DNA of 64,000 bases from Syntrophales bacterium (GCA_041648505.1 JBAZOY010000006.1:332-64331), one strand, 5' to 3'. Shown: positions 3,117 through 24,770, numbered from the stretch's first letter. Numbers and translations are program-made. Notes: a model not told the origin generated them from the letters alone.

Positions 3117-3139
3117 CAGACTAAAAGAGGAGGTGAATT

Positions 3140-3544
3140 GTGAGTGAAGAATGGCGAAGCAATTGGAGCCGACATTATGATCAGGTGCAATGGACGGCAA
3201 CCACCTTGTTGATGGCCGCAATTGGCGGTCTGCTCGCCTTTTCGTATTCGCAAGCTGGGGTTCCCTTTGACCCGTGGATTCCCGCCATTGGCTTGTGGTT
3301 AACGTGGCTTGCGGTCTATTACGCCGCCAGTTGTCGTGAACTCCGACGACTCCTTCATGACGACCTTCCTGCGGGCGACGAGAAGGCCTTTCTGAGCAAG
3401 TGTCGTGATCTTAGGCAGTGGCCGGTGTTTCTAGTGACGTTTGCAATCATCACGATCGCCTGGTTATGGCACTGCTGGGCACATGACTGGCACTGGTTGT
3501 CGCTGGCTCTGCTTGGCTTGCCGTCAGTATTGCATGGTTCCTGA
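3140..3544 (+). CDS. Hypothetical multi-pass membrane protein (cassette ORF)
   Basis: 134-aa ORF with GAGGAGG upstream of a GTG start and 3-4 hydrophobic Trp-rich segments. No recognisable family. Confidence 0.55.
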   Translation: MSEEWRSNWSRHYDQVQWTATTLLMAAIGGLLAFSYSQAGVPFDPWIPAIGLWLTWLAVYYAASCRELRRLLHDDLPAGDEKAFLSKCRDLRQWPVFLVTFAIITIAWLWHCWAHDWHWLSLALLGLPSVLHGS

Positions 3545-3609
3545 TGTCCTATCATGCCAGCCGACGAACATGCAGTCAGCCGGAGAAAGAGCATATGGAA
3601 GAGGGGGAG

Positions 3610-3671
3610 GCCCAACATCCGCCTGCAAAATAGCGTCGCTTCGCGCTGCAGTTTGAGGCGGGGCGTTAGCC
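3610..3671 (+). mobile_element. attC-like site P1 (62 bp)
   Basis: GCCCAAC ... GTTAGCC with internal pairing CCGCC/GGCGG and TGCA/TGCA. It lies between two ORFs, and the next ORF starts 20 nt after it. Confidence 0.7.
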
Positions 3672-3690
3672 CTTCTCGTCAGGAATAAAC

Positions 3691-4590: not shown

Positions 4591-4593
4591 AAG

Positions 4594-4652
4594 GGCTAAC
4601 AATTCCTTCAAGGCGACACCAAGGGGTGTCCTCCCTTGAGCCTCGGTTCATT
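4594..4652 (+). mobile_element. attC-like site P2 (59 bp)
   Basis: GGCTAAC-AATTCC-TTCAAGG-CGACACCAAGGGGTGTC-CTC-CCTTGAG-CCTCG-GTTCATT. The 5' half resembles, from memory, aadA-type 59-base elements (TAACAATTCGTTCAAGCCGAC). R'' is the perfect complement of P1's R'. Confidence 0.75.
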
Positions 4653-4806
4653 CCCGAAAGTCGTCCAGTTTCCTCTTTGCGCCCGATAGACGGCTGGCTT
4701 TAATTCAGGTCATCTGTTACAATTTCGCTAATGAACGTGGGCGCAAAGGTTCATTCCGCAGGCGCCCTTGGCGCGCCTCAATTGGCGTTATGCCTGAAAA
4801 AGGCTC

Positions 4807-4836
4807 TTGCAAATACTAAATATTGTACGTTATAAT
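4807..4836 (+). promoter_or_regulatory. Sigma70-like promoter with overlapping palindrome (probable Phd operator)
   Basis: TTGCAA-N18-TATAAT. The inverted repeat TGTAC-N8-GTACA spans the -10 box, 33 nt upstream of phd. Confidence 0.55.
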
Positions 4837-4868
4837 GTACATAATTTAGAAACAACGCGAGGTGAAAA

Positions 4869-5150
4869 ATGCAAAGATTAAAAATTAATCAAGATATCAA
4901 ACCACTATCCGAGGTAAGGATAGGTATCGCAAACTTCATAAAGCAAGTTCATGATACAAAAAGACCTTTGATTATTACGCAGCACGGAAAAGGTGTTGCC
5001 GTTTTATTGGATGCTTATGAATATGAAGCAATTCAGGAGAAACTTGAGCTTTTGACAGATGTTCAGGCATCCCTTAATCAACTCGAAAATGGACAAGGTA
5101 TTGCTCATGAAGATGCAAGGGGAAAAGTTTTGAAGAGAGTCCAGGAATGA
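4869..5150 (+). CDS. Phd/YefM family type II antitoxin
   Basis: 93 aa; the KRPLIITQHGKGVAVLLDAYEYE region is typical of Phd/YefM. GAGGTG RBS. The stop overlaps the next ATG (ATGA). Confidence 0.85.
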   Translation: MQRLKINQDIKPLSEVRIGIANFIKQVHDTKRPLIITQHGKGVAVLLDAYEYEAIQEKLELLTDVQASLNQLENGQGIAHEDARGKVLKRVQE

Positions 5151-5317
5151 AAATCATTTGGTCGCCGTTGGCTATTGATAGAGCTTCGGAAATCGCTGAA
5201 TATATAGCCCAGGACAAACCATCTGCAGCAGAAAAATGGATTAACACGGTATTTTCAAAAGTTGAGCAGCTAAAATTTTCTCCTGAAATCGGCACGGTAA
5301 GCAGATACTGCCAATAG
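5147..5317 (+). pseudogene. ParE/RelE-family toxin, truncated after 56 codons
   Basis: MKIIWSPLAIDRASEIAEYIAQDKPSAAEKWINTVFSKVEQLKFSPEIG is a ParE-like N-terminal half. It then ends abruptly at TAG 5315-5317. Too short for the ORF track. Confidence 0.6.
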
Positions 5318-5722
5318 ATGAAATTTTGGCATAACTACAGCTTGAGGGACGTGGGTTCCGCTGCGGCTGCCAAGAACCCCCCTGAACTGCGCGCACTGGG
5401 GACAGGACTCCTGGCGGGAGTCGGGGGTGTTTCTGTCGTTCTTGGCCTCGCTGCCCAGAACACTCTTTCCAATCTGGTTGCGGGACTGTCACTGGTGCTC
5501 TACAGGCCCATTCGAGTAGGAGACAACGTTCAACTGACCACCCCAAGAGGGCTGATGACTGCCACTGTGGAGGTTGTCTCTCTCGGCTGCACGGTTCTTC
5601 GCGATGCTGACAAGCACGAGGTTATTGTCCCCAACAGCGTGATGGCGAGCAGCGTAGTGATTTCGGCTCGGAGCAACAAGAGTGTCTACCGATTGAACTG
5701 CCGACAGTTAGCCGGTAAATGA
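5318..5722 (+). pseudogene. C-terminal fragment of an MscS-family mechanosensitive channel
   Basis: Only the TM3/beta-domain region is present (LGLAAQNTLSNLVAGLSLVLYRPIRVGDNV...). The N-terminal TM helices are missing, and it abuts the truncated toxin. Confidence 0.65.
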
Positions 5723-6907: not shown

Positions 6908-7291
6908 ATGTATTATATAGTTGAAACCGACAAATCATTCGACCAGGCGTCGGCAGACCTTGAATCAGCGGTTAAACGTCATGGCTTCGGGGTACTGCAT
7001 GTCCACGACCTGGGTACAACTCTCCGCGTTAAAGGCATTGTCTTTGATGAGCAATGCAAGGTTTTTGAAGTCTGCAATCCGGTGCAGGCGGCAAAAGTTC
7101 TGTCAACCGATATGCGCCTGAATATGGCGCTGCCGTGTCGTATCTCGGTGTTTACGGAGAAAGGCAAAACGAAGATTGGTCTTATTAAACCAGGGCAAAT
7201 GCTTTCGGCGCTATCTCAGGATGCAGCGTTAGTTCAAGTTGCCAAAGGGGTTGAGGAAAAGACCATTCAGATGGTTGACGAGGCGAAATGA
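6908..7291 (+). CDS. DUF302 domain protein
   Basis: 127 aa. The pattern FGVLHVHDLG...FEVCNP...ALPCRISVF is typical of DUF302. Confidence 0.75.
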   Translation: MYYIVETDKSFDQASADLESAVKRHGFGVLHVHDLGTTLRVKGIVFDEQCKVFEVCNPVQAAKVLSTDMRLNMALPCRISVFTEKGKTKIGLIKPGQMLSALSQDAALVQVAKGVEEKTIQMVDEAK

Positions 7292-8470: not shown

Positions 8471-9598
8471 ATGACGACGAACAAACAAATTTTTTATGTG
8501 TTCTTGATGTGTATCTCTTTTTTGTTGGTGTCTTGCGGAAAGGATTCGGTTGTGTCTTATGTGCCGGTTACAGGTTGGGTCATTGGCACCGCAACGGACG
8601 AAGACACGGGTATTCCCACGCCTGAAGTTCTCAAAACAACAAACGGCGGTGCGACTTGGACGCTGCAATCCCTGCCTGCCGAGTGCGTCGGCTTTCAGGG
8701 AAACGATATCAGCGCCGTCAATCATCAGGTGGCTTGGGCGGCGATAGGTGATTTATACAGCTTGGAGGGTGGTATTGTGCATACCTTGGATGGCGGCGCA
8801 ACCTGGGCTATGCAAACGCTTCCCGACGGAATGGGCAACCGGCATATCAAAGGGATCAAAGGGGTCAGCGCCATGGAAGCCTGGGCCGTCAGCATCGGCG
8901 GTGACGTGCTGCATACCACGGACGGCGGGAACAACTGGTACATTGTTCCGACGCGTACTGTTTCGGGCGAGGTCATTACGATGACGATGGTCAATCGGAT
9001 GGATGTGACAGACAGTAACATCTGGATTGTCGATGTGCCGGCGCACAACATGGGCGTGATCCACTCGCCGGACGGCGGTCAAACGTGGCGGCATGAACAA
9101 CTGCCGGATGTTGGTTCCGGACACGGACCTCTCGCCATCTCCGCCTTTAGCTCATTGGTTGCCTATGTCTCGGTGAATTCCGAAGGTACTTTATGGTGGA
9201 CAAGCAATGGTGGCGAATCATGGAACAAAAGCGTCGATGCCATTTCCGGCACGGCGGATTTCGACGAAATCTGCGCCTCCAGCACCAATGTCGTCTGGGT
9301 TGCCATGAACAACGGCGGTTCCAGCGGTGGCTTGGCCGCCCGAATTACGGTGACGGACGGCAGCTTTGACTCCAATATCTATATGAACGTGGACTACATG
9401 ATGGAAGGGATTTCCGCCATGAACGATACAAACGCTTGGCTGGTCGGATTCAAAACATTTCGCGCCGACCCTTCTCTTCCCAAGGGCGCAATCTATGTCA
9501 CGTACGATGGCGGGGTCAACTGGCAGCTCCAAACTCTGCCGGATAACGCCTGCGACATCGATTTATGGAAAGTCTCGTTTGTGGGCGCAAGACGTTAA
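8471..9598 (+). CDS. Lipoprotein with six Asp-box (BNR) repeats; beta-propeller, Ycf48/sialidase-like fold
   Basis: Lipobox LLVSC. Repeated S/T-x-D/N-G-G-x-T/N/S-W units: TNGGATW, LDGGATW, TDGGNNW, PDGGQTW, SNGGESW, YDGGVNW. Confidence 0.7.
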   Translation: MTTNKQIFYVFLMCISFLLVSCGKDSVVSYVPVTGWVIGTATDEDTGIPTPEVLKTTNGGATWTLQSLPAECVGFQGNDISAVNHQVAWAAIGDLYSLEGGIVHTLDGGATWAMQTLPDGMGNRHIKGIKGVSAMEAWAVSIGGDVLHTTDGGNNWYIVPTRTVSGEVITMTMVNRMDVTDSNIWIVDVPAHNMGVIHSPDGGQTWRHEQLPDVGSGHGPLAISAFSSLVAYVSVNSEGTLWWTSNGGESWNKSVDAISGTADFDEICASSTNVVWVAMNNGGSSGGLAARITVTDGSFDSNIYMNVDYMMEGISAMNDTNAWLVGFKTFRADPSLPKGAIYVTYDGGVNWQLQTLPDNACDIDLWKVSFVGARR

Positions 9599-9864
9599 CG
9601 CCGGAATTATCGCTCCGGCAATGAAATGCTGACATACGATATATTTTTCTTCTACCTGTGGTTGCGAGGCGCGCTGCTATCGTAAAGCTGCAGGACATTG
9701 AGTATGCCGACTTTATGAAGTTTTGTTCCTTAGTAGTCATCGACAAGGGCCAAACCCAGTTTATCCGATTCGGCTCATACAGCCATCGTGCAGGCAAACA
9801 GCGAAACCAATCCCGGAGATACAAAAAGTTCTTTTTTCCACCACTCTTTCCGTATTTAAGGAAC

Positions 9865-11682: not shown

Positions 11683-12082
11683 TAAACTACCCTTCGTTTC
11701 ACAGGCCCTACTATAACTTTACTATGGCTCTTTTGCATAAGGCAATACTCTTTAAGAAAAACAACTGGTTCGTCATTGATGAGGGATTGTTTTTCATGCC
11801 GGAAGTATACGAGGACGGATATTGTGTGTCAATGGAATAATGATCACAAAAATATTGGTTGTGGTATCGATGAATATGGGAGGTGTGGGAGGGGGGGGAT
11901 GATTCCCGGGAAGAGTATACTTAATTGTGGAGAATACCCAAAGTTATTACATTGGCTCTGTGGCGTAAAAACTTTTATATGGTATACTAGTTTTAAAAAT
12001 TGGTTATTCGTGGCGAGACGGTGTTAACCGAGTATAAATTGGTCCCAAGAGCTTGTGCGCTGGGTTCCAGAAAGAGAAGAAA

Positions 12083-13459
12083 ATGACAAAAAAATTCGAA
12101 CAGATCCCGGTTATAAAAGGGCAGGAGATTGAGACCGAAATCATTGACCTTGCCCATGGTGGCAATTCGGTCGCGAAACACGACACTTTCACCCTTTTCA
12201 TACCGTATGGAGTCCCAGGCGACAAAGTCAAAGTAAAAATCACTGACGTTAAAAAGAATTTCGCCAATGCCGAAATAGAATCTATTATTACCCCTTCAGC
12301 GTTAAGGATTATACCCCCCCCGTGTCCATATTTCGGGCAATGCGGCGGCTGCCACTGGCAGAACGTTGCCTATAATGCCCAGTTGGAATTCAAGTTAAAA
12401 TCAATAACCTCGTCCCTCAAAAAAATCGCCGGTTTGACGATTGAAACACCGGAAATAAAAGGGTACGAAAATCCCTTTTCCTACCGCGACAGGTCGCAGT
12501 ACAAGCTCGCGCAGGGGGAAGATACGGTGATGATGGGTTTTTACAGAGCAGGAAGCCACGATGTCATAGACGTGCAAAAATGCTTGATACAAAAAGAGGT
12601 CATCAACCACGTCATGGCGGGCGCGCGAGAGTTCCTGGCCGCGAACAAAAATACGAGCCTTTCAATGTATGACGAGAGCAGGGCAAGTGGCGCGTTACGC
12701 TATTTGACAGCCAGGGTGAACAGCACCGGCGAATGTCTCTTTACCGTAATTACCCACGAGAAGAGAAGGAACGACTCCATAGAAAAATTCGCAAAATATA
12801 TGAAAGAAAATTACTCCGAGATAAAAGGGGTTGTAATGAACGTCAACCCGCTGACTGGCAACAGGATATTCGGCAACAGGGAAGACACGCTGGCAGGGGA
12901 GGGCAGTATAAGAGAAAAAATAAGGGGTGTGGAATTCGAGCTCGGGGCGGAGACATTTTTTCAGGTAAATACGGAGCGTTTGAACGACATACTGGATTTT
13001 ATAGATGCAAACATACCGGAGGGCGATTCCGTGGTTGACCTTTACGCGGGCGTGGGCGCTCTCTCCCTTCCTTTACATGGAAAAATCAGAGAACTCAAGG
13101 CAGTCGATGTTTTTTACAAGTCCATTAATTCCTTCAGAAAAGCTGTGGAAACAGGGCAGATCGCGAACGCGGAGATAATAAAAGCAACGGCAGAAGCCGC
13201 GGCGGATGAAGTGATACAGAAGGGTAAAACCGGCACGGTAATAGTAGACCCGCCTCGCAAAGGGCTTCATAAGTGGGTAATACAGGCCATCAAGAAGAAG
13301 AGAGTGGAAAACTTGATATATATTTCCTGCGACCCGGCTACCTTTGCCAGGGATTTGAAAGAACTGGGAGATATGTATATTATTAAGAAAATAGAAGCGG
13401 TTGACATGTTCCCGCAGACTTACCATGTAGAAACGCTGTGCGCGTTGGGGTTGAAGTAA
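12083..13459 (+). CDS. rlmD: 23S rRNA (uracil-C5)-methyltransferase, RlmD/RumA family
   Basis: TRAM domain, Fe-S Cys cluster (CPYFGQCGGCHWQ), SAM motif VVDLYAGVGALS, catalytic region YISCDPATFARD. Confidence 0.9.
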   Translation: MTKKFEQIPVIKGQEIETEIIDLAHGGNSVAKHDTFTLFIPYGVPGDKVKVKITDVKKNFANAEIESIITPSALRIIPPPCPYFGQCGGCHWQNVAYNAQLEFKLKSITSSLKKIAGLTIETPEIKGYENPFSYRDRSQYKLAQGEDTVMMGFYRAGSHDVIDVQKCLIQKEVINHVMAGAREFLAANKNTSLSMYDESRASGALRYLTARVNSTGECLFTVITHEKRRNDSIEKFAKYMKENYSEIKGVVMNVNPLTGNRIFGNREDTLAGEGSIREKIRGVEFELGAETFFQVNTERLNDILDFIDANIPEGDSVVDLYAGVGALSLPLHGKIRELKAVDVFYKSINSFRKAVETGQIANAEIIKATAEAAADEVIQKGKTGTVIVDPPRKGLHKWVIQAIKKKRVENLIYISCDPATFARDLKELGDMYIIKKIEAVDMFPQTYHVETLCALGLK

Positions 13460-13536: not shown

Positions 13537-13593
13537 CTTGAACAAGGGATTGAACGAGATATTTCAGGTTTCATAAATCTTGATTGGTTATCA
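13537..13593 (-). mobile_element. B-type attC-like repeat, copy B3 (terminal site of the minus-strand array)
   Basis: About 80% identical and ungapped to 22737-22793. Read on the minus strand: TGATAAC...GTTCAAG. The res stop codon sits in the R''-like end. Confidence 0.5.
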
Positions 13594-16425
13594 TTTCTCT
13601 TCAGTTACATCGTGCCTGATTAGAATATCCCGAATCTCGCCCGGAGCCTTCGCAACCGCACAATGCCAGTGCCCAAAGCCCCCGTGGGCGTTTATTGCCT
13701 GTGCCCATTCCTCCAAATAACGCCGTTTGACCTGATCTTGCTCCGTGTCCTGCCCTTTGGTCTCCAGGACGAGCATTTTGCCATTAGTCAGCCTCACCAG
13801 GAAGTCGGGCCGGTATTTGCGCACTATGCCGCGATAAACGTAGAGAACCTCAAACCCTAGGTGATCGTTCTTGGCCCAGGCGGCGACGTGGTTGCTGTCG
13901 TCCAGCACAAAGGCGTCCGACGCTTCCCAGGTGCTGTCATAGACACAGACGTTGATGTGCGATTTCTTTGTCCGCTCGCAAGGCTTGCCGGTGTACCAGG
14001 TGCGCATTTCGCCCGTGGCGCGGATGGGATGGTCGCGGTCGAACACCGGCGTAAGCCGTTCGGTGTTATCCTGCCGCACCGCCTCCCAGACGTGCTGTAC
14101 CACCCGCGACATATTGAGGGTGATGATCAACCGGCGGCGCAGTTCATCCTGATAAAACAGCGGCGGGGAAATAAAGATCTTGTCCGAACGGATGAACTCC
14201 TCCACGATGTGCACCAACTGGGCCAGCAAGACCTCGCGGCTGCCCTGCCAGGTGCGCTTCATCTGGTCAAACACGTCCCGCGCCGTCTCAAAGATGATGC
14301 GCTGGGTGCGGAACTCCCGCGCCAGACGTTCCAATTCGATGCGGCTGATCTGGCTTACATCCGGCTTACCTTCCAGCACCGGAGCCAGTTCGGCCACCTG
14401 CGCGGTGTGGGCTGCGTCCAGTTCCAGCGACCGTGCCTTGGCCCAATCCAGCGTCAGCGTTGGCTGAAAGACGCGCTCAATGCGTACCACGTTGGGCCAG
14501 CGGATTTCAAATTCCGCATTGTTCAGGTCCGGTTCAACAGGGGTCTTGGGTGTAGGCGGAGGCGGCGGCCCGTCTTCGCCCCCTTCGTGGGGCAGGAAGG
14601 TAAAGGGCACGCCAAAGATGTTGACATATTCCGGCTCGAACATTCCCGTCTCCGGGTTGACCTCGTAGGACGTGCGTCGCAGGCCGCGCCCCACCACCTG
14701 CTCGCATAGCAACTGGCTGGTAAAGGCGCGCAGGCCCATAATGTGCGTCACCGTCTTGGCGTCCCAGCCCTCGCTCAGCATCCCGACGGAAATGACCTTC
14801 CGGATGCCCGCGCCCGGCAGCCCGGCCTTGCCCACTGTGTCCACCATACGGCGCAGCAGTTCGGCTTGTGCGACTTTGGTCAGCTTGCGCTCCACTGGCG
14901 CTTCGGCTTCTTCGATCTCAGTATCAGCTTCCGCCGTCTCCAGCGGTGCAACCGGCTCCTCGCGCTCTTCCGCCTCCTTGAGCACCTTCGAGTCAATATG
15001 CAGGATGCGCTCCGGGTCGCACAGTTCGTCAATGTGAATGCGCCGGGAGTCGAAGGCGTGCTTCACCCGTGCCGCCGTCTCGGTGCGGTTGCACACTGTG
15101 ATCATCACCGGCGGGGTGGGCGCACCTATCTCCGCCCATTTCTTGTATGCCTCGCGCCAGTCGTAGCCCAGCAGGTAATAGGCGTTCAGCACCAGGTCGG
15201 GTAACGGTTCTTCCGGCTCGGCCTTGCGGTTCAGGTCGTCTTTCACGTCCGGATCGTTGTAGATGTGGTAGAGACGCGATTTGTAGGTCTTCGCGTCCGG
15301 CACAGCGTCGTCGCGTACCACCACGCGCGGAGTCTTGACCAGCCCAGATTCGATGGCGTCGTTCAGCCCAAAGTCGCTGACGATCCAGCCGAACAGCGCC
15401 TCCTCGCTGCTCTTCTTGCCCGACGGTGTAAATGGCGTAGCGGAAAAGTCGTAGCAGGTAAGGATGCCCCGCGAACGGTGCAGCCGGTCCAGCCCGCCGA
15501 TCCAGACCGTGGCCTCCTCGGCGCTGTCTTTCATATCCCGGCTGCGCAGGTATTTGCCTTCCGCATCCCAGTTGACCCGCCAGGCGTGGTGTGCCTCGTC
15601 GTTGATGACCAGCAGATTGCGGGCGTTGGCCATCTCACCAAGCACCTCGCGTGTGTAAGCTTCATCGCTCTTTACGCCGCGCTTGTCCACGCTACGCCGT
15701 TTCTTGACCTGCTCCTCGCTGTCCCAAGCCAGGACGTGCCAGTTGCGCACCAGCACCTTGCCCTGCCGCAGCTTATCCAGCAGGGCCGAGGGCACGATGT
15801 TGAACTCCTCGTAATAATTCCCAACCTTCGACGGTTCGAGTACGGCCAGCCTGCTTTTTACCGTCAGTCCTGGGGCCATCACCAAAATATTTTTGGCGAA
15901 GCGGGCGTCCTGCGGATAGGTCACCTTATTGAGGATGTGCCAGGCAATCGCCATTGCCATCACGATGGTCTTGCCGGAACCAGTCGCCATCTTGCAGCAC
16001 TGTCGCAGAAAAGCCCCGCCGTCGCCCGGAATTTCGATGCCCACCCGCTCGGCGGCGGGCGCTTCGGTCAGCCAGATCAGCGTCTCAATGGCTTCCAACT
16101 GGCAGAAGAAAAAGCGCCGCGCCTCGAACTCTTCCGGGTCCCGCCAGTGTTCCAGCAGACGCTTGGTGATGCTGGAGACGCCCGGCCAGCCCGCTTCACC
16201 CCAAGCGGCCACACGCGGACGAATCTGGTTGACCAACGGGATTTCCACAAAAATGCCGGGATCATCGAAAGCCTTGGACTCGCCCGATGCCACCACGTAG
16301 CCTGCCGGACGGCGACCCTCCACCAGATCGAAGCTGCGCGTCTCGCGTTCGTAGCGCCAGTGGCGTTCCGGCTCCGCGTAGGGAGAGTTGATGATAAGGC
16401 GATCAATCGTGGTGCGGGCCATCAA
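13591..16425 (-). CDS. res: Type III restriction endonuclease, Res subunit (SF2 helicase-nuclease)
   Basis: 944 aa. Walker A MATGSGKT, DEAH box NDEAHH, C-terminal nuclease-like region. The start overlaps the hepT stop by 4 nt. Confidence 0.9.
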   Translation of the reverse strand: MMARTTIDRLIINSPYAEPERHWRYERETRSFDLVEGRRPAGYVVASGESKAFDDPGIFVEIPLVNQIRPRVAAWGEAGWPGVSSITKRLLEHWRDPEEFEARRFFFCQLEAIETLIWLTEAPAAERVGIEIPGDGGAFLRQCCKMATGSGKTIVMAMAIAWHILNKVTYPQDARFAKNILVMAPGLTVKSRLAVLEPSKVGNYYEEFNIVPSALLDKLRQGKVLVRNWHVLAWDSEEQVKKRRSVDKRGVKSDEAYTREVLGEMANARNLLVINDEAHHAWRVNWDAEGKYLRSRDMKDSAEEATVWIGGLDRLHRSRGILTCYDFSATPFTPSGKKSSEEALFGWIVSDFGLNDAIESGLVKTPRVVVRDDAVPDAKTYKSRLYHIYNDPDVKDDLNRKAEPEEPLPDLVLNAYYLLGYDWREAYKKWAEIGAPTPPVMITVCNRTETAARVKHAFDSRRIHIDELCDPERILHIDSKVLKEAEEREEPVAPLETAEADTEIEEAEAPVERKLTKVAQAELLRRMVDTVGKAGLPGAGIRKVISVGMLSEGWDAKTVTHIMGLRAFTSQLLCEQVVGRGLRRTSYEVNPETGMFEPEYVNIFGVPFTFLPHEGGEDGPPPPPTPKTPVEPDLNNAEFEIRWPNVVRIERVFQPTLTLDWAKARSLELDAAHTAQVAELAPVLEGKPDVSQISRIELERLAREFRTQRIIFETARDVFDQMKRTWQGSREVLLAQLVHIVEEFIRSDKIFISPPLFYQDELRRRLIITLNMSRVVQHVWEAVRQDNTERLTPVFDRDHPIRATGEMRTWYTGKPCERTKKSHINVCVYDSTWEASDAFVLDDSNHVAAWAKNDHLGFEVLYVYRGIVRKYRPDFLVRLTNGKMLVLETKGQDTEQDQVKRRYLEEWAQAINAHGGFGHWHCAVAKAPGEIRDILIRHDVTEEK

Positions 16426-16787
16426 TACACCCCCTTGTCCAACGCCTTTTCCAAGATGGATATCAGAGATGGCAAGTCATGCCTGACCGTTTGCCAGAGA
16501 ATATCCAGATTAACGTCGAAATAGGCATGGACCAGCCTATGACGCATACCGACGATGTCAGCCCAAGGAATATCCGGCACCCACGCTTGCCCGCTATTCG
16601 TAACTTGGCCAGCCGCCTCGCCAACGATCTCAACCAGCTTCACCAGCGACAACATCAACATAGGATCACGATCGAGGTCACCGCGCTTTCTGCCCTGCGT
16701 GAATTGAACCGCCTGGCGTGCCGCGTCCAGCATATGACGCAGTCGGATGGCATCATCCTTGTGCATATTGCACCTCCGCTTCCTCAA
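16422..16787 (-). CDS. hepT: HepT (DUF86) ribonuclease toxin
   Basis: 121 aa with R-x4-H-x-Y motif (RHRLVHAY). Overlaps mntA by 35 nt. Confidence 0.85.
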
Positions 16788-17058
16788 GCACGCTTTGACG
16801 AAAGTACCGGCTCAGATCTTCCGGCGTGCGAAGATCAACCTTTCGACCTTCGAGCAGGGCCGACAGATCCCGTTCCATACGCGCTATCCCGAAAAGACCA
16901 GGAATGTGATCCGATTCAAACTCGACCAGCACGTCAATGTCACTTTCGGGCCGGAAATCGGGTCGCAGCGCCGAGCCAAAGATGGCCAGACGTCGGATGT
17001 GCCGATCCCGGCAGAATGCGGCAATCCGTTCTTTAGGAATATAAATCGCGGTATTCAT
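16753..17058 (-). CDS. mntA: MntA minimal nucleotidyltransferase antitoxin
   Basis: 101 aa with [18 protein letters not shown] (GS-x10-DxD). The start overlaps the mod stop by 4 nt. Confidence 0.85.
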
Positions 17059-19628
17059 TCTCCTACCTCCATGATCTTCAAACTCTCGATGCCCCGGTCG
17101 TCCACGATCTTGACAGCGATGCGCTTGTGTTCGCCCGCCGGAAAGGGCAACGACACCGAACCCCGGTAGGCCTCGATCAACTCCTCGTCAATCTCAGCTT
17201 TGAGGTTCTTCGCCAGTTTCGTCCAGCCTTCTTTTTCTCCTGCCTGCGGGAAAAAGACCTGGCGCGGATAGAGACTGCGCCCGTCATAGTCGGTATCCAG
17301 CAGCCAGATGGCGATCTGATGCGCGCCGCCCGATTCGATGGCGCCAGTCCTGGTGTTGTAATAGTCGAACCCCTCGACGCTGACCCGCCACTTGCCCTTC
17401 TCCTCGCCTTTGGCAATGCGCTCCAGCCTCACATCCGGCTGACCGATGAGCCAGAAGGATTCGTTGCTGGCCCGCTTCTTCTTTAGGTCGTCGGTCAGCA
17501 GATCGGCGTTCATCTGTGCCTTGAGCAGGGTGACGCCCGGCCAATTGGTTTCGTCAATGTCCTTGGCGGCTTCAGGATCGAACTGGAAGGCGGCGAAGAC
17601 AATCAGTTTGGGCCTGGGCACGAGCGTTTGGGCCTCTTCGATGGCCTGGGCCACCTGGCGCTGTTCCAGCGGGGCGTGCTCCGGGCCGAAGGAGACGACG
17701 ATGCGCTGCGGCGCATAGGCCGTGCCAGCTTCACGCACCGAGTCCTTGCCTTCGGCGCTGGGGCGGGTCTCACCATCGGCGTGCAGGTGGCGGCAGCCGG
17801 GCAGGGGTTCCAGCCGGGCAAAACGGATGTGCTGGCCCGCCTTGCCGCGAATGCCCGTGCGCAGCAGTTCGTCGCGCCATTCACCCTGGCGCAGGGTTTC
17901 TCCGGAACGGGCAATGGAGAGATCGGCGCCAAACTCCCTCTCCCTCTGGGAGAGGGTCGGGGTGAGGGTCTCCTCGATAGACTTGACAGCCGGGGCTGGC
18001 ACGGCCTCCACAGTAAACGGGCCGCTGACGCGGTGTTTCTTGCGGTCCACAAGCGGCTGGTCGTAAAGCGTTTCCGTGCCGGGCGGCTCGTTGTTGGCGA
18101 TAGACTTGAGGGTGACGTGCGGCACGGTCTTGTAATTGAAGCCGCTGCCCACGCCTTCCTGCGGGTGGGCCAGTTCGTAGTAGTTGAAGACGGCAGTCAT
18201 CAGCCGCTGCTTTGCCAAGGTGAGGGCCACTCGGGATGTATCGCAGGTAATCCACCGCCGCCCCCACTGCTCGGACACATAGGCGGTGGTGCCGCTGCCG
18301 CAGGTGGGATCGAACACCAGGTCGCCCGGGTCGGTGGTCATCAGGAGGCAGCGCTTTATTGCCTCTGTCGAAGTTTGAACAACGTAGATTTTTCCTTCAA
18401 TCCTGTTCTGAACACCACCAATATCTGTCCATAGGTTGTTTATTGGATATACAGGGAAGTCATCCAAGAAGCGCAAGAACCTTGGTGAATTACCTTCAAT
18501 AACGACCCTTCTGGCCTTCAGCAAACGATATAGTCCTTCCACTTTAGTCTTCCAGTGCATACCTTTTGGCGGATGATAGTTCTTTCCATTAACCTCAAAC
18601 CTCGTTTCACTTTCAGTGGGCCCTTGGCTTGTAAGCGAGTCCACACTGACCAGTTTATCTTCTGGCCACCAATTTTGTGGTATGTTCTTATAACTTCCTA
18701 CAGGCTTGTATTTTGTTGCACCTTCTTCTCCTGCTGCTTTTTCGTTATAGAGCTGCCGGTATTTAATTCTTGCTTTATCCTTTGCGTACCAAACCAAATA
18801 ATCGCCAGCACGGCTCAAGGTCAAAGAGGCGAATCCGCTTGTCGTAGAAAATGAGACAAGGCTGACAAAATTTCCCGCCCCAAACACCTCATCCATCAAT
18901 TCCCGCACGTGATGAACGTTCTCGTCGCTGATCTGCACAAAGACGCTGCCGGATTCGGTCAGCAGTTCACGGGTTAAGAGAAGGCGGTCGCGCAGGTAGG
19001 TCAGGTAGGAGTGGATGCCCAGTTCCCAAGTGTCGCGGAAGGCACGGATCTGCTCCGGCTCGGCGGTCAGATCCTCGTCCTTGCCGTCTTTCACGTCTCG
19101 TTTATTGACAAAGGGCTGGAAATTGGAGCCGTACTTGATGCCGTATGGCGGGTCGAGATAGACCATTTGCACCTTGCCGGCCATGCCCTCTTTTTCCAGC
19201 AGCGAGTTCATCACCAGCAGGCTGTCACCGGCCACCAGACGGTTACTCCAGCCGTGGGCGTGTTGGTAGAACTCAATGGCCTCCCGGAGTGGCGGGTTTT
19301 CCTGCGACGTGGCGAACAGCGAAAACTGCACCGGCGCGGCGGGGTCGGGGACGCGGCGCACGGCCTCGATGATCGTGCGCGGGTCAATGCGCTCGTGGAC
19401 GTGCAGTGAGACGGTGGGAATCTCGAACGACGTGTGCTCCGCCTTGCCCGCCCATTTCAGTTGCGGGTCCAGGTGCGGGTCGTAGGCGTAGGTTTTCTTT
19501 GCTCCGGCGTCCGGATCGGTGTCCGGTGTTACCAGGCCGACAGGCGGATTATTCACCCGCTCTTTGCCTTTATGCTCGTAGGACTCGATCGGTTTTTTTG
19601 TTTCGGTTGTCTTTTTTCTTGCCATCAA
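17055..19628 (-). CDS. mod: Type III R-M DNA methyltransferase, Mod subunit
   Basis: 857 aa. DPPYG (motif IV) precedes [10 protein letters not shown] (motif I), the beta-class order typical of type III Mod. Confidence 0.9.
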
Positions 19629-19665
19629 TGACCTGCCTTTTGTATTTCGCGCAATTGATTGGGTA

Positions 19666-19737
19666 GGCTAACGGCGGGCATGAATGGTTGGGAAAAGCGC
19701 AAGCTTTTTTTAATCCATCTCGATGCCCCTGTTAGGC
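19666..19737 (-). mobile_element. attC-like site S1 (72 bp)
   Basis: Minus-strand read: GCCTAAC-AGGGG-CATCGAGATGG...CCATTCATG-CCCGCC-GTTAGCC. Lies between the 169-aa ORF and mod. Confidence 0.7.
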
Positions 19738-19757
19738 AATCCCTCTGAAGGAACAGT

Positions 19758-20267
19758 CTATCTTACACCTATCGCACAGGAACCATTCTTGCGCAGCCAA
19801 ATGCCGATGGACAGATTCTGGAAGACGTTTCCGATCATCGTAACTCCACCCACTTGGATCGCGCTTCCCGTTAAATCAAAGAGTTCCGGCTTAGGAGCAC
19901 CCGTACATTTAACAAAGTACCCGTCTGGCGTATATAATTCTGCGTCCGCCTTGAACGCGTCGCTAACACCGTGGGTTAGTTCGAACATCACTTTATTGTC
20001 AAGACTGCATATGAACTTACCTTGCTGGTCTCTTATGTTGATGCTCGCTTTTTTCCCAGCTTCGGTAGGATAGACTCGGTTGCCTTTAACCTTCGCCAGA
20101 TATGTTCCGTCCGAGTGATAAATTGGTATTTGTGTAGTGAAACCAACACCTTGTTCTTTAATAACCTCTATAAGTGGTGTGTCCTCATACTTCAGAATGA
20201 CAGGAACATTGATAAACGTATTCGTTGCGACGGTTATACTTGGCGACGACTGAAAAACAAGTTTCAT
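19758..20267 (-). CDS. Hypothetical protein (169 aa), single-ORF cassette, predicted beta-rich
   Basis: Intact ORF bounded by attC-like S2 and S1. Internal repeat Y-x-x-DG-x-[YF]-h-x-K/C (IYHSDGTYLAKVKG / LYTPDGYFVKCTG). No family recognised. Confidence 0.55.
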   Translation of the reverse strand: MKLVFQSSPSITVATNTFINVPVILKYEDTPLIEVIKEQGVGFTTQIPIYHSDGTYLAKVKGNRVYPTEAGKKASINIRDQQGKFICSLDNKVMFELTHGVSDAFKADAELYTPDGYFVKCTGAPKPELFDLTGSAIQVGGVTMIGNVFQNLSIGIWLRKNGSCAIGVR

Positions 20268-20289
20268 AATTTCCCTCCTAGATAAACTG

Positions 20290-20350
20290 GCCTAACGCCG
20301 ACATCAGCGAGAGCCAGCTTTTTCGGCGATTCGGTGCATGGCGGTTCGGC
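20290..20350 (-). mobile_element. attC-like site S2 (61 bp)
   Basis: Minus-strand read: GCCGAAC-CGCCA-...AATCGCCGAAAAAGCTGGCTCT...-TCGGC-GTTAGGC. Its centre is homologous to S3 and S4. Confidence 0.75.
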
Positions 20351-20401
20351 AAATCCTGTTGGTTGTCTCATCCTGCATTATTGTATATGCCGTCTCGGTT
20401 C

Positions 20402-21004
20402 CTATATGTCCCGCTCTGGCGCGTCCCCGTCATTCCGCCTAAATGTCTCTGCAATGTCTTTAAGCTTTGCAAGGGTCTGCGCAATCTGCTCAAGTTGTTC
20501 AGCGGCTTTTTTGTCCCAATTGTGGTCAGAAGCGTCGGTCCCTTGAAACGACTTGATGTCGATATGAGAGGTTGTCTTGTGTTTCTTTGGTGTGAATCGT
20601 AGGGCCGGATAGCTCTTATATGTTGCCGTAATATCCAATACGTTATCTCCGAGCCCTTTTTGCAGCCCGTGAAACTGGCCCCATGTGATTATTCTTTTTT
20701 CACCTGCGGCGAATGCTGGAATACCGTGAATCAAAGGGCCGTTCTTCATTGCGTCTGGTTCAGGTGCGTTGCCGAAGCCGAAGGCTCGTTGTGGGATTGG
20801 GCGACTTGCCTGAAATCTAACATCTCTCGCTCGGCCATTACCGATATTCTCTATGACCAAGTTGATAAATGACGGTCGTCGCGAGTCCGGTAATGCGTAC
20901 ACTATAACTTCAGGGTCTCGCTGAGAGCGCAGCACAAGATAGTTGATGATCGTGGATGTAAGGGCAATAACCAGTGCGACAAGGCTAAGTATTTCCGTTT
21001 CCAT
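20402..21004 (-). CDS. Hypothetical membrane-anchored protein (200 aa), single-ORF cassette
   Basis: N-terminal TM helix (ILSLVALVIALTSTIINYLVL), a beta-rich middle and a charged C-terminal helix. No family recognised. Confidence 0.55.
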   Translation of the reverse strand: METEILSLVALVIALTSTIINYLVLRSQRDPEVIVYALPDSRRPSFINLVIENIGNGRARDVRFQASRPIPQRAFGFGNAPEPDAMKNGPLIHGIPAFAAGEKRIITWGQFHGLQKGLGDNVLDITATYKSYPALRFTPKKHKTTSHIDIKSFQGTDASDHNWDKKAAEQLEQIAQTLAKLKDIAETFRRNDGDAPERDI

Positions 21005-21109
21005 GGTCTAAGGTGTTTTCCCCATTAGGCAGTCTTTGCAACAAAGTTGCATGAAGTATTCGATCAGGTCCATTCTTCCGCTTTCCCCATAGTATGAATC
21101 ATTTCATGT

Positions 21110-21172
21110 GCCGAACGATGAGTTCAGCCAGAGCCCGCTGTTTGGGCGATTGGCTCCAACGCCTGGTTGGGC
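21110..21172 (-). mobile_element. attC-like site S3 (63 bp)
   Basis: Minus-strand read: GCCCAAC-CAGGC-GTTGGAGCC-AATCGCCCAAACAGCGGGCTCT-GGCTGAAC-TCATC-GTTCGGC. Confidence 0.75.
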
Positions 21173-21189
21173 CTTATCATTTTGCCTCT

Positions 21190-21810
21190 TCACCTTATTC
21201 TCTCGGCTAAGATTTCTTTCAAAGAGTCCTTCTTTTTTCTATTACAACTGCGGCAAAGCAATCTGATGTTCTCTGCATGTGTTGGGCCACCAAGCGAATG
21301 TGGAATAATATGATCGAATTCGATCTCGTCATCTGGAACATTCTTCTGGCAGACGCGGCACACTTGCCCATCACGACGCACTACTTTCAGCATAATATCT
21401 CGGGGAATTCCTCGTTCGATCCTTCGGTCTTGTTTCGTTTCCGTGAAAGGCTCGGCAGAAAAAAATACCGGGCAAATATGGCCAAAGACAGAGCAACTCA
21501 GTTCTTCCGTCCGATATTGGTTGATCAATTCCCACCGCTTTGGCTCCAGTGACAGGATGGCTTCTATCGCTCTGTTAATCTCCCTAAATGTCTTTAATGA
21601 TCCGCTACGCACCTCAGCGATCCAACTCTTATAAGCCTTTTTCACGTCGCTGAACGGCAGATCATCAGCCGGTAGCGGAAAGAACTCTACCAATGGACCA
21701 TAGGGGCAGTATTTGAGCTCCCAGCATGGCTTGCACACTACGTGTTTCAATCGTGGCTTCTTCGCGTAGTATTCATTTTCCGTGGCTAAGTTGACATTTC
21801 TACTTCTCAT
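21190..21810 (-). CDS. HNH endonuclease with Cys-rich N-terminal domain
   Basis: C-terminal CRVCQ...DHIIPHSLGGPTHAENIRLLCRSCNRKK. N-terminal CKPCWELKYCPYG. An AT-rich promoter-like region lies upstream. Start is ATG 21810 or TTG 21837. Confidence 0.8.
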   Translation of the reverse strand: MRSRNVNLATENEYYAKKPRLKHVVCKPCWELKYCPYGPLVEFFPLPADDLPFSDVKKAYKSWIAEVRSGSLKTFREINRAIEAILSLEPKRWELINQYRTEELSCSVFGHICPVFFSAEPFTETKQDRRIERGIPRDIMLKVVRRDGQVCRVCQKNVPDDEIEFDHIIPHSLGGPTHAENIRLLCRSCNRKKKDSLKEILAERIR

Positions 21811-21949
21811 AGACCGAACATAGATTATCCATACCAATTGACGTATTAAAAAACAGAAAATGATTTTAACTTATCGAAAACATATTACAATAAAAAATAG
21901 CTGTCAATAAACAAATGGTTATATTGAACCGATAAATACAGAAATAGGG

Positions 21950-22639
21950 CTATATGAAACTGCCCGATTCGGTCAGCAGTTCACGGGTTAAGAGAAGGCG
22001 GTCGCGCAGGTAGGTCAGGTAGGAGTGGATGCCCAGTTCCCAAGTGTCGCGGAAGGCACGGATCTGCTCCGGCTCGGCGGTCAGGTCCTCGTCCCTGCCG
22101 TCCTTCACGTCTCGTTTGTTGACGAAGGGCTGGAAATTGGAGCCGTATTTGATGCCGTAGGGCGGGTCAAGGTAGACCATCTGCACCTTGCCGGCCATGC
22201 CCTCTTTTTCCAGCAGCGAGTTCATCACCAGCAGGCTGTCGCCGGCCACCATGCGGTTGCTCCAGCCGTGGGCGTGCTGGTAGAACTCAATGGCCTCCCG
22301 GAGCGGCGGGTTTTCCTGCGGCGTGGCGAACAGCGAAAACTGCACCGGCGCTGCGGGGTCGGGGGTGCGGCGCACGGCCTCGACGATCGTGCGCGGGTCA
22401 ATGCGCTCGTGGACGTGCAGTGAGACGGTGGGAATCTCGAACGACGTGTGCTCCGTCTTGCCCGCCCATTGCAGTTGCGGGTCAATGTGCGGGTCGTAGG
22501 CGTAGGTTTTCTTCGCTCCGGCGTCCGGGTCGGTGTCCGGCGTTACCAGCCCGACGGGCGGATTGTTCACCCGCTCCTTGCCTTTGTGCTCGTAGGACTC
22601 AATGGGTCTTTTCGTTTCGGTTGTCTTTTTTCTTGCCAT
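21950..22639 (-). pseudogene. Truncated second copy of mod (N-terminal about 228 codons)
   Basis: About 96% aa identity to residues 1-228 of the 17055-19628 Mod. Retains DPPYG but lacks motif I. Homology ends near 21958, at the AT-rich DNA. Confidence 0.85.
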
Positions 22640-22679
22640 CTATAATCTTCCTCATCTGATTTCTGTCGCTGCTTGGGGA

Positions 22680-22742
22680 GGCTAACGCCTGGGTCAGCCA
22701 GGGCCCTCCGTTTGGACGATTGGCTGCACCCGGAAGTTTGAA
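22680..22742 (-). mobile_element. attC-like site S4 (63 bp)
   Basis: Minus-strand read: TTCAAAC-TTCCG-GGTGCAGCC-AATCGTCCAAACGGAGGGCCCT-GGCTGACC-CAGGC-GTTAGCC. Homologous to S3. Confidence 0.65.
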
Positions 22743-22793
22743 CAAAGGATTGAATGCGACCTTTCAGATCTCATCAATCCTTATTGGTTATGC
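22737..22793 (-). mobile_element. B-type attC-like repeat, copy B2 (S5)
   Basis: Minus-strand read: GCATAAC-CAAT-AAGGATTGA...TCAATCCTT-T-GTTCAAA, with a perfect 9-bp stem. The ORF stop TAA lies inside R''. Confidence 0.6.
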
Positions 22794-23420
22794 GTCCTCA
22801 TCTTTATCTTTGGCTGCCTTAGAAACAGAGACCTCTAGCTTGCGTTTGCCATCAATGAGTTCCTTAAATCCTTCGCGAAGGTCCTTTTGCTCCTTTAAAG
22901 CCTCCTCACTCACAGGAAAACTCGTGACGTCCATTTTGAGGTGGGCATCACCATACAGTAGTCTGACCAAGCCACCCCGAATCAACCGCTCTTCGGTCTC
23001 AAACTGAGCATGGGCCTCCGGAGCGTAGATTCCTCGCTTAACGTGGACTTCGTCAAAGACGTATCCGAGTGATTTTCCCATTTCCATGAGAAGTTTAGCT
23101 AGAAGGTCGACACGACGTTCTCCCCATATCGGTTGCTGCTTCTCATCGTCCTTCGGGTAGTGGTAGAGGTGATCCAAGTATGTCTTCCAGGCATCAGTTA
23201 CTCCCTTGTACTTCATGCCTTGGAACTCGAGGTCAATCATGTTCAGTGCCTGAACGTGCTGAGGTGATACGGTGGCAGCACGAGTCGCCATCAATATCTT
23301 GAATACATTCAGTTTGCGGGTTTTGTCCTCGCGGTAACGCTCCAGGAGTTTCTGCACTTGAACAGCAACCAGTGGCGCGAGAAGAACCGCAACGATCATC
23401 AGCCAATCTGCTATCCTCAT
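22788..23420 (-). CDS. Hypothetical membrane-anchored protein (210 aa), cassette ORF
   Basis: N-terminal TM helix (WLMIVAVLLAPLVAV) followed by a helical domain (FKILMATRAATVSPQHVQALNMIDLEF). GGAGG RBS. I recall similar DUF-type proteins but cannot verify this. Confidence 0.55.
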   Translation of the reverse strand: MRIADWLMIVAVLLAPLVAVQVQKLLERYREDKTRKLNVFKILMATRAATVSPQHVQALNMIDLEFQGMKYKGVTDAWKTYLDHLYHYPKDDEKQQPIWGERRVDLLAKLLMEMGKSLGYVFDEVHVKRGIYAPEAHAQFETEERLIRGGLVRLLYGDAHLKMDVTSFPVSEEALKEQKDLREGFKELIDGKRKLEVSVSKAAKDKDEDA

Positions 23421-23491
23421 TGCTCGCTTCCTCCGTAATCATTGCGCCGTTCATCCCGACTGCAAGCGGGCGGAGCTGCCGTAAAACCTTA

Positions 23492-23498
23492 GCTTAAC
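23492..23498 (-). mobile_element. Core site GTTAAGC upstream of the first minus-strand cassette (attI-like, or R' of a lost attC)
   Basis: GTTRRRY match 72 nt upstream of ORF 23420. It complements the R'' of S5 (GCATAAC) at 6 of 7 positions. Confidence 0.35.
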
Positions 23499-23797
23499 AA
23501 ACCCTTTCGCGATGATTTGCTGCTCTCTGGAATTTAATCATCCTATGTGTTTATTTGTAAGGTAGTATGGGGAAATTTTCTCATGAAATCAAGAACTGAT
23601 TGTAAGATATTAGGGATTTTATGGTAGTATTGGATGAGTGTCATGGTCAGCATCATGGTGCTCAATCGAAGGAGATGGACAGATTCCGGCCTGTAAGCAC
23701 ATGAACAGGATACCGGAAACAAAGATATTTCGCTTGCCGTTGGTATAAGCGGAAAGATTTATAAGTAATAGCAGGTAACTATTTGTAATTATTTTCA

Positions 23798-23852: not shown

Positions 23853-24770
23853 ATGTCTGAAGAGATGATGAATACTAAAGAGCTGGCTCAATATCTGGGG
23901 ATTCACGAGAAGCAGGTCTATATCTTGATCAAATCGAAGAGGCTTCCGTCTACACGGGTGACCGGGAAGTGGGTTTTCCCAAAGATGTTGATTGACGAAT
24001 GGATTAATTCGAGCGCAAAAACAGGTCTTGAACAGGCCAGAGAGAGAAGCAAGAAATTCGAGGGAGTTCTTCTGGCCTCAGGCAGCAATGACCCCGTTCT
24101 GGATATGCTCCATACCAATATGAGAAAATCGTGCCCTGAATTTTATATATTTTCCGCGAACACAGGAAGTACTGATGGCCTTAAAGCCCTGAACCTGGGT
24201 TATACCGATATCGCCTGGTCTCACCTTTTCGATCCAAAGAGCGGTGAATATAATATTCCTTTTCTTGCGAACTATCTTCCTAATATAAAACCTGTTGTAG
24301 TTAATCTCTTCCGACGTGATCTCGGATTCGTGGTTGCTCCTGAAAATCCTCTCTGCATTCGCGGGTTCGAGGATCTGACTCAGAAAGAGGTAAGGTTAAT
24401 TAACCGGCAGAAGGGTTCCGGTACAAGGGTGCTGTTGGACCATCACCTGAAGAGATTAAATATCCCAACATCCGAAATTCGCGGGTATGAAAATGAGGTT
24501 TATACCCATTTTGAAGTAGGTCTTGCCATTCTCTCCAGTGAGGCGGATATTGGTATTGCCACGATCGCTGTTAGTAAACTCCTCGGCCTTCCTTTTATTC
24601 CTATTACCCAGGAAAGTTTTGACATGATCCTTGATCAAGCGACGTTTTTTGAAAAAGGTATCCAGACCTTCATTGATATTCTAAACTCCCTGGAATTTCG
24701 AAACAGGGTTGAAAGATTGGGAAGCTACGACTTCAAAAATTCAGGAAAAATTCTTTATTCAAAAAATTAA
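23853..24770 (+). CDS. Excisionase-type HTH plus PBP-like domain regulator (TunR-like tungstate/molybdate-responsive regulator)
   Basis: N-terminal MNTKELAQYLGIHEKQVYILIKSKRLPSTRVTGKWVFP (MerR/excisionase HTH) and a C-terminal periplasmic-binding-protein-like domain. Sits next to tupBC-like genes. Confidence 0.65.
   Translation: MSEEMMNTKELAQYLGIHEKQVYILIKSKRLPSTRVTGKWVFPKMLIDEWINSSAKTGLEQARERSKKFEGVLLASGSNDPVLDMLHTNMRKSCPEFYIFSANTGSTDGLKALNLGYTDIAWSHLFDPKSGEYNIPFLANYLPNIKPVVVNLFRRDLGFVVAPENPLCIRGFEDLTQKEVRLINRQKGSGTRVLLDHHLKRLNIPTSEIRGYENEVYTHFEVGLAILSSEADIGIATIAVSKLLGLPFIPITQESFDMILDQATFFEKGIQTFIDILNSLEFRNRVERLGSYDFKNSGKILYSKN

Follow-up and report, generated by a model that had tools for sequence, protein, structure and literature searches.

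The window analyzed here, 64,000 nt of DNA from a Syntrophales bacterium (GCA_041648505.1, JBAZOY010000006.1:332-64331), carries two groups of genes separated by sites that resemble the attC sites of integron cassettes (Table 1). The first group, array B, comprises nine open reading frames (ORFs), all co-oriented on the minus strand, which encode a DUF6680 protein (210 aa), a truncated methyltransferase (mod', 229 aa), an HNH endonuclease (215 aa), two orphan proteins (200 and 169 aa), and the Mod (857 aa), MntA, HepT, and Res (944 aa) proteins of a restriction-modification (R-M) block. Plus-strand genes for an rlmD-like methyltransferase (12053-13459) and a ModE-like regulator (23853-24770) border it. 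The second, array A, faces it on the plus strand and was absent from the initial annotation of this DNA; it encodes a membrane protein, a cation diffusion facilitator (CDF) transporter, and a Phd/ParE-like toxin-antitoxin (TA) pair. We consider it very likely that the two are integrase-less integron cassette arrays, or clusters of attC sites lacking integron-integrases (CALINs), in a Syntrophales chromosome.

As Rfam holds no attC family, a covariance model was trained exclusively on 11 class 1 integron attC sites from clinical plasmids [blaVIM-4, aac(6')-Ib, arr-3, cmlA5, aadA1, aadA2, aadB, qacF, catB3, dfrA12, and gcuF], with a 7-bp R box, a 3+6-bp L box, one extrahelical base, and a free loop, and the whole window was searched on both strands (128 kb) with the filters off. 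The two best matches were S1 and S3, both above threshold, while S2 and a partial match to the core of S4 fell below it; S1, S2, and S3 were recovered on the minus strand at exactly the bases proposed for them in the initial annotation, which had suggested such a search. Held-out genuine attC sites (dfrA1, dfrA27, and two orf cassettes) scored 18-30 bits with the same model, and 1.05 Mb of related Syntrophales DNA gave no match at E ≤ 1. The model alignments of S1-S3 contain the L''/L' stem, the unpaired base on the '' arm and spacers of approximately 5 nt (the 5' spacer of S2, at 3 nt, is 2 nt short), and the two boxes that attC sites have on the coding strand at a distance of 50-150 nt, RYYYAAC and GTTRRRY, are both present in S1-S3 and in the array A sites at 3610 and 4594, some R' boxes deviating from the consensus at one position. 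Three other matches in the window (9593-9634, 6925-6955, and 46901-46944) were dismissed as too short for attC.

The class 1 sites of aadA1, cmlA5, and blaVIM-4 have the same layout, R''(7)-5 nt-L''(extra base)...L'-5/6 nt-R'(GTT...), and the L boxes of S3 (GTTGGAGCC) and S4 (GGTGCAGCC) resemble those of blaVIM-4 and cmlA5. The window sites differ from them in loop sequence and in the extra base of the bottom strand, which is C rather than G, and they accompany no resistance genes.

S2, S3, and S4 do share a conserved centre, as had been noted earlier: a 28-nt degenerate pattern matches these three sites only in the 64 kb, with 0 matches expected. A relaxed 18-base pattern led to 70 metagenomic contigs, approximately 60 of which have the full attC layout (xxxTAAC, 5 nt, NNTGCAGCS-AATCG-stem-loop-CTSGCTGANN, 5 nt, GTTxxxx) and represent further copies of the family (here the S family). 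Covariation was tested on the L box and inner stem of 42 distinct S-family sites. Across these, 90.5% of cells pair. The covariation score, 0.384, exceeds both the 0.126 of shuffled data (none of 500 shuffles reached it) and the values obtained when the partners were slid (at most 0.062), and pairs switch freely between GC (25) and CG (14), among AU (14), GC (11), CG (6), and UA (5), and between CG (23) and GC (17). In all 42 sites 11 nt lie opposite 10 nt, with a single unpaired base on the L'' arm.

Many of these contigs have more co-oriented attC matches (six in L140), and three of them (L113, L173, and L175) contain an integron-integrase gene (TIGR02249, 243 bits), with the IntI-specific segment and 47-50% identity to IntI1, on the cassette strand, with an S-family attC of 23.8 bits approximately 1 kb downstream. 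This integrase lacks the part that corresponds to IntI1 residues 100-215, which indicates that it is decaying, in an "inverted integrase" layout; the L173 gene (6011-6904, minus strand) contains short odd insertions in addition to its internal deletion. Integrons with an inverted integrase form one of three intI groups and have intI and cassettes on the same strand (PMC3575428). The L173 intI and its S-family cassettes are likewise on one strand, but unlike in that group the gene is internally deleted, and the window has none.

Because the crossover in integrons falls between the G and the TT of R', a cassette should start with six bases that complement its own R''. In the window this holds without mismatch for five cassettes (chance approximately 1/16 each): the three of array A (Table 1) and those of the 200-aa and 169-aa orphans, for which the match had already been pointed out. 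Cassette boundaries at G|TT are also evident from comparisons with other DNA. The metagenomic contig L003 is 97.8% identical to the window over the 200-aa cassette; upstream it has another ORF and another S-family attC, and identity resumes at G|TTCGGC of S3. A 200-aa homolog in a Syntrophus metagenome-assembled genome (MAG) (L004, 76% identity) is followed by a GCCGAAC...GTTCGGC attC of 27.4 bits, R'' GCCGAAC being kept, and TA cassettes surround it in an array where seven attC matches are co-oriented. Homologs in Geobacter FeAm09, within an integrative and conjugative element, and in Ca. Jettenia are without attC. A candidate exchange of the 200-aa gene for a 78-aa ORF in L001 was rejected, as the DNA is the same (99.9% identity) with another gene call.

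A further junction of this type is provided by mod', a truncated copy of the 5' end of the R-M cassette that is approximately 95% identical to 18946-19640, with homology starting exactly at GTTAGCC. This is the R' of S4 for mod' and the R' of S1 for mod, and the upstream parts of the two sites are unrelated. Between 21950-22679 and 18936-19671, identity is ~65% in the 5' untranslated region, ~92% in the early coding sequence, and 100% over the final 150 nt before the truncation, a gradient that suggests gene conversion may have acted between the copies. Beyond the truncation lies the HNH segment, whose spacer has TTGACA-17-TATGTT at 21907-21879 and whose protein matches Pfam HNH_5 and HNH. The R'' of S3, GCCCAAC, is not complementary to TTAGCC, which agrees with our reading that mod' and the HNH segment are two cassettes joined by a deletion.

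It had been claimed that every gap between the ORFs holds a palindrome, but the mod'-HNH gap (21838-21949) has none, and res, hepT, mntA, and mod overlap without gaps. That the sites are imperfect palindromes in intergenic DNA downstream of ORFs could nonetheless make them generic repeats of the repetitive extragenic palindrome or bacterial interspersed mosaic element (REP/BIME) kind, or terminators, with the R''/R' complementarity coincidental. Single-sequence DNA folding, an earlier suggestion, would leave room for this: the bottom-strand fold of S1 is significant (z = -4.5) and has bulges on the R''/L'' arm, while the minimum-free-energy folds of S2-S4, and those of the palindromic elements B1 and B2 treated below, are no better than those of shuffled sequence. 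As S1 alone is significant, folding energy by itself is indecisive. We give the repeat or terminator explanation almost no credence, since no site has a T-run, the S-family repeats are confined to the array within the window and absent from the 1.05 Mb of relatives, the attC model recovers the sites, the G|TT junctions recur in different contexts, and intI accompanies the family in metagenomic contigs.

Table 1. Arrays, cassettes, and attC sites in the window, with matches to the attC covariance model.
Feature	Position	Strand	Content and boundaries	Model match
Array A	3110 to ~5400	+	membrane ORF / CDF transporter / Phd/ParE-like TA	
Array A cassette 1	3110-3671	+	G|TTGGGC 3110-3116; 134-aa membrane ORF 3140-3544; attC 3610-3671, R'' GCCCAAC, R' GTTAGCC	10.6 bits
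Array A cassette 2	3666-4794	+	starts TTAGCC; CDF cation-efflux gene 3691-4590; long attC 4594-4794, R'' GGCTAAC, R' GTTATGC	17.5 bits, E=0.019
Array A cassette 3	4788-5400	+	starts TTATGC; Phd/YefM antitoxin 4869-5150; truncated toxin ORF 5147-5317; R'' GCATAAC 5329-5335	
Array B	~23447 to 13537	-	DUF6680 / mod'+HNH (apparently fused) / 200-aa / 169-aa / 6.1-kb mod-MntA-HepT-res	
DUF6680 cassette body	22788-23447	-	ORF 22788-23420, 210 aa, N-terminal transmembrane helix; Pfam PF20385, 202 bits	
DUF6680 attC, interrupted	22680-22793	-	R'' GCATAAC 22787-22793; B1 22737-22787; S-family core and R' GTTAGCC 22680-22736	
S4 core	22680-22725	-	partial match	9.7 bits, E=3.2
mod'	21950-22679	-	229-aa ORF 21950-22639; begins G|TTAGCC of S4	
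HNH segment	21190-21949	-	AT-rich promoter-like spacer 21838-21949; HNH endonuclease gene 21190-21837	
S3	21110-21172	-	R'' GCCCAAC, R' G|TTCGGC	22.9 bits, E=5e-4 (second)
200-aa orphan cassette	20351-21115	-	ORF 20402-21004; opens TTCGGC, own R'' GCCGAAC	
S2	20290-20350	-	R'' GCCGAAC, R' G|TTAGGC	14.6 bits, E=0.13 (fifth)
169-aa orphan cassette	19738-20295	-	ORF 19758-20267; opens TTAGGC, own R'' GCCTAAC	
S1	19666-19737	-	R'' GCCTAAC, R' G|TTAGCC	24.4 bits, E=1.8e-4 (first)
Putative R-M cassette, ~6.1 kb	13587-19671	-	starts TTAGCC; ends in mutated R'' TGATAAC (13587-13593) overlapping the res stop	
R-M genes		-	mod 17055-19628; MntA 16753-17058; HepT 16422-16787; res 13591-16425	
B2 palindromic element	13537-13587	-	adjoins the R'' of the R-M cassette	none

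The last unit of array B is predicted to be a type III-like R-M system, with a Mod methyltransferase (N6_N4_Mtase; PADLOC MTase_III, 540 bits) and a Res helicase-nuclease (ResIII; NCBIfam BPTD_3080, 1148 bits against a cutoff of 800) in one operon; MntA and HepT, a candidate type VII TA pair of nucleotidyltransferase antitoxin and HEPN RNase toxin, are above cutoff for Pfam NTP_transf_2 and HepT-like, with NCBIfam equivalog scores of 37 and 29 bits against a cutoff of 60. From its ends, mod-MntA-HepT-res appears to behave as one cassette of ~6.1 kb, approximately three times the accepted maximum size. In four other loci (L101, L103, L184, and L185) the R-M unit has matching ends, GTT[A/G]GCCTCCC at its start and GGCTAAC at its close. 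In Chlorobaculum tepidum TLS (L103) the 5' end reads GTTAGCCTCCC and the res stop lies inside a GGCTAAC that opens an attC of 20.2 bits; in L101, a metagenomic array, the unit comes after an S-family attC and ends in GGCTAAC; and in the MAGs L184 and L185 it begins GTTGGCCTCCC with unrelated DNA upstream and a decayed 3' end. L184 has the four genes in the same order as the window, and at the res 3' end the colinearity of the window with L101 and L184 extends as far as ...TAAC.

An independently mobile R-M island that landed beside S1, and was never a cassette, would account for the size of the block, for its GC content of ~60% (vs. ~46% in the host DNA), for its lack of an intact attC in the window and for the units that stand alone in chromosomal contexts in L184 and L185. 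We think this unlikely, as both copies in the window start at the G|TT of two unrelated attC sites, the first 7 nt of the unit, GTTAGCC, complement the GGCTAAC over the res stop in L101, L103, and L185, this box opens the 20.2-bit attC in C. tepidum, and in L101 the unit follows an S-family attC within another array. Homologs of Res that are 85-93% identical are found across the Syntrophales, Chlorobi, Planctomycetota, and Chloroflexota, and R-M operons of the BPTD_3080 type, with or without MntA/HepT, may be integron cassettes of 5.4-6.3 kb that have been spread across phyla by integron integrases.

The mod-res junction of these operons is a hotspot for extra modules: MntA/HepT occupies it in the window (16422-17058) and in a Thermoguttaceae MAG (L184, 3314-3947), and DUF1828 with a 152-aa ORF in L102 (254-1495). 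Mod is fused to DUF559/MTES_1575 in C. tepidum (L103, 6633-10001) and L185. After the C. tepidum res stop, opposed attC matches of 20.2 bits (plus strand) and 26.8 bits (minus strand) flank a 39-nt hairpin (L103, 12833-12997; AE006470), a small CALIN-like structure in a model organism.

At the other end of array B, the DUF6680 cassette recurs in L176 (85% identity), where it starts at G|TTATGC and ends in an uninterrupted site, GCATAAC-GAGTT-GGTGCAGCCAATCG...CTGGCTGACC. From near 23447 the window is colinear with L176 except for 51 nt (B1) between GCATAAC and the spacer and L'', and on that basis S4 and the R'' at 22787-22793 constitute one attC split by an insertion. The limits given to S4 in the initial annotation consequently need correction, its supposed R'' (TTCAAAC, 22736-22742) being the end of the insert. 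Nor does the start then assigned to the 210-aa cassette stand: the 6-of-7 match was coincidental, as GTTAAGC (~23503) lies approximately 50 nt upstream of the point where homology to L176 begins, and no attC or attI signal was found in 23380-23700. The 5' junction of array B is degenerate and the upstream R' of the DUF6680 cassette is lost. Homologs of DUF6680 occur in co-oriented runs of defense genes, with FRG and TIR proteins in L176 and with HsdR, DarT, and AbiEi/AbiEii in L180; attC matches are present in L176 and there are none in L180.

A second palindrome, B2, is 77% identical to B1; beyond it nothing more remains of the R-M attC, and the array abuts the rlmD terminator. All B copies start right after R'' AAC, including the only further one found among 183 loci (L168, 2482-2524). 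B1 and B2, each together with the adjoining R'' (22737-22793 and 13537-13593), had been taken for attC sites, and it could be argued that they form a second, non-canonical class of attC, given that they are bounded by ...TAAC and GTTCAA[A/G], have an L-like stem of 8-9 bp, lie at the 3' ends of cassettes, and are followed by similar sequence in L168 and after B2, as if the next cassette came there. This seems to us quite improbable. Neither strand of B1 or B2 was matched by the model, even when the search was narrowed to 221 nt; the 3' spacer has just 2 nt, and the extrahelical base is absent; in L176 the DUF6680 R'' belongs to an S-family attC, which makes B1 extra DNA between R'' and L''; and what was taken for the "R''" of B2 is, in mutated form, the GGCTAAC that closes the R-M cassette. 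The B elements are instead insertions of ~51 nt beside R'' boxes.

Two origins are conceivable for such insertions. Known mobile elements that target attC include the IS1111-attC insertion sequences and the group IIC-attC introns; B likewise sits inside attC, always at one position and in one orientation, but unlike them it is ~51 nt long and non-coding, and it has no similarity to the single IS110-family element seen (L012). It may be a mobile element, in miniature, that targets attC. Alternatively, the opposite strand shows B1 as a TT...G segment within G|TTATGC, the place where top-strand recombination by an integrase would require a cut. Top-strand recombination events have never been observed in nature (PMC5027507), and B may be the footprint of one, the first natural example. 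That the giant R-M cassette was spread by integrases and that B is either a footprint or a miniature element is, for the two taken jointly, a tentative proposal that we hold at slightly worse than even chances.

In array A, the hairpin of the first attC has a bottom-strand folding energy of -14.2 kcal/mol, the transporter of the second cassette matches Pfam Cation_efflux, and the antitoxin of the third matches TIGR01552 phd_fam. The attC of the second cassette is 201 nt long, vs. the usual 57-141 nt, and may itself contain an insertion. That of the third is broken, and an MscS-like fragment (5318-5722) has become joined to it.

Genes for the ModE-like regulator and a glucan phosphorylase flank the arrays. 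Among 185,579 species genomes the closest matches to ModE, at 84% identity, are in Syntrophaceae MAGs, which points to a Syntrophales species not yet sampled. The 80 Syntrophales loci around modE that we compared have in common with the window only the downstream mod genes; upstream of modE none of the 80 has rlmD, cassettes, attC matches, or intI, and the S family was not found in these loci. A search with Rfam matched no family to the array region. Its only matches were two cobalamin riboswitches (RF00174) elsewhere in the window, upstream of transport-type genes on the minus strand at 38893-39093 and 40998-41213 (71 and 55 bits).

CALINs are defined by at least two attC sites within 4 kb and no intI in reach (PMC4889954). 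The window has four such sites in 19666-22793 and two in 3610-4794, each group on a single strand with spacings below 4 kb and no integrase in the vicinity; S4/S3/S2/S1 and 3610/4594 are co-oriented, as in other CALINs, and the cassette ORFs lie on the attC strand. Array B differs in its 6.1-kb last cassette, which the default 4-kb clustering of IntegronFinder would cut off, and in two attC sites interrupted by a 51-nt palindrome. The category is an established one, and is found here in a new lineage. A sedentary chromosomal integron would have more than 10-19 homogeneous attC sites and be conserved in the species; the arrays have approximately five and three cassettes, three of their sites belong to one family, and the relatives have no array upstream of modE. 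A complete integron would have an intI gene with the IntI-specific domain and an attI adjoining the array. Neither is in the window, where tblastn with IntI1 found no tyrosine recombinase (best E = 5), in agreement with the initial annotation.

Several points weigh against our interpretation. The lack of both integrase and attI extends over the 64 kb of a source contig of only 66,043 nt; S2 and S4 score below the held-out genuine sites; and the model is home-made, from 11 sequences with a short calibration, which leaves its E-values rough, and the argument therefore rests on the ranking and the controls. The attC of the R-M cassette itself is broken in the window, its status as a cassette relying on other loci, and two of these (L184 and L185) have decayed ends and lie outside any array. 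The identification of a CALIN, first made in the initial annotation, is nonetheless upheld by the recovery of the sites with the attC model and their observed architecture, the covariation over 42 family members, the G|TT junctions in several contexts, the linkage of the family to intI in metagenomes, and the absence of an integrase from the window.

In the mechanism that we envisage, every cassette would end in an attC whose bottom strand folds into an R box, an unpaired spacer, an L box with its extrahelical base, and a variable loop, and an integron integrase acting in trans would cut R' at G|TT, with cassettes excised as circles and reinserted. The integrase either has been lost from the locus or lies outside the 66-kb contig. 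Both arrays are decaying, the 5' junction having been lost, one attC at each distal end broken, two cassettes fused by deletion, and two attC sites split by the 51-nt palindrome.

The arrays might alternatively be not orphaned, with a functional intI elsewhere in the genome, and be active satellites or split pieces of one sedentary chromosomal integron. Their position 8 kb apart and face to face suggests the rearrangement of a larger array, the S family is tied to intI in the related contigs L113, L173, and L175, and the turnover of cassettes at S3 between populations 97.8% identical (L003) implies recent integrase activity. Against this stand the absence of intI from the 64 kb examined, the internal deletion of the single linked intI found, the broken terminal attC sites, fused cassette, and interrupted attC sites of the two arrays, and the fact that most CALINs have no nearby intI (PMC4889954). 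We regard a functional integrase elsewhere as a serious possibility, if the less probable case, and retain orphaned, decaying arrays as our reading.

The idea in the initial annotation that the cargo is anti-phage held best for the R-M system, for which a defense role is supported by the PADLOC match; such a role is plausible for MntA/HepT (PDC-S09), as it is for the HNH nuclease with its weak restriction endonuclease matches. No match to a family, to a PADLOC entry, or to a known structure was obtained for the three orphans. The 169-aa and 200-aa proteins matched nothing in PADLOC, Pfam, or NCBIfam, and the 169-aa family, with 238 representative clusters, has no Pfam entry. The predicted structure of the 200-aa protein (pLDDT, the predicted local distance difference test, of 85) has a transmembrane helix, an immunoglobulin-like sandwich, and a C-terminal helix, that of the DUF6680 protein (pLDDT 72) a transmembrane helix and a helical bundle, and neither model had a match in the PDB at E < 0.001. 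That the cassettes are mobile today, that they are expressed, and that their cargo acts against phages is inferred.

In a RefSeq survey by Darracq et al. (bioRxiv 10.1101/2024.07.02.601686), the number of genes of defense systems in cassettes "never exceeds 2 components," and the systems are mostly type II/IV R-M and mostly from Vibrio. Like the defense-storing sedentary integrons of that survey, the window has R-M, TA, and nuclease genes among orphans, and related attC sites within an array; it differs in its four-gene, 6.1-kb type III-like system, its five cassettes, and the lack of an integrase. That surveys report no large R-M cassettes is partly due to the assumption of detection software that cassettes are at most 2 kb.

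Of most interest at this locus are the putative giant R-M cassette and the B element within attC sites. The S family is an abundant environmental attC family, found in sediment and groundwater contigs and tied to an integrase, and could serve to capture cassettes from those habitats. The arrays extend the idea of integrons as stores of defense genes from the superintegrons of the Vibrio type to a lineage of anaerobic syntrophs, and to a large multi-gene R-M system of a kind that current surveys report as absent from cassettes. If our reading of the R-M unit is right, cassettes would reach approximately three times their accepted maximum, and multi-gene defense systems in integrons would have been systematically missed through the 4-kb clustering rule of the tools.

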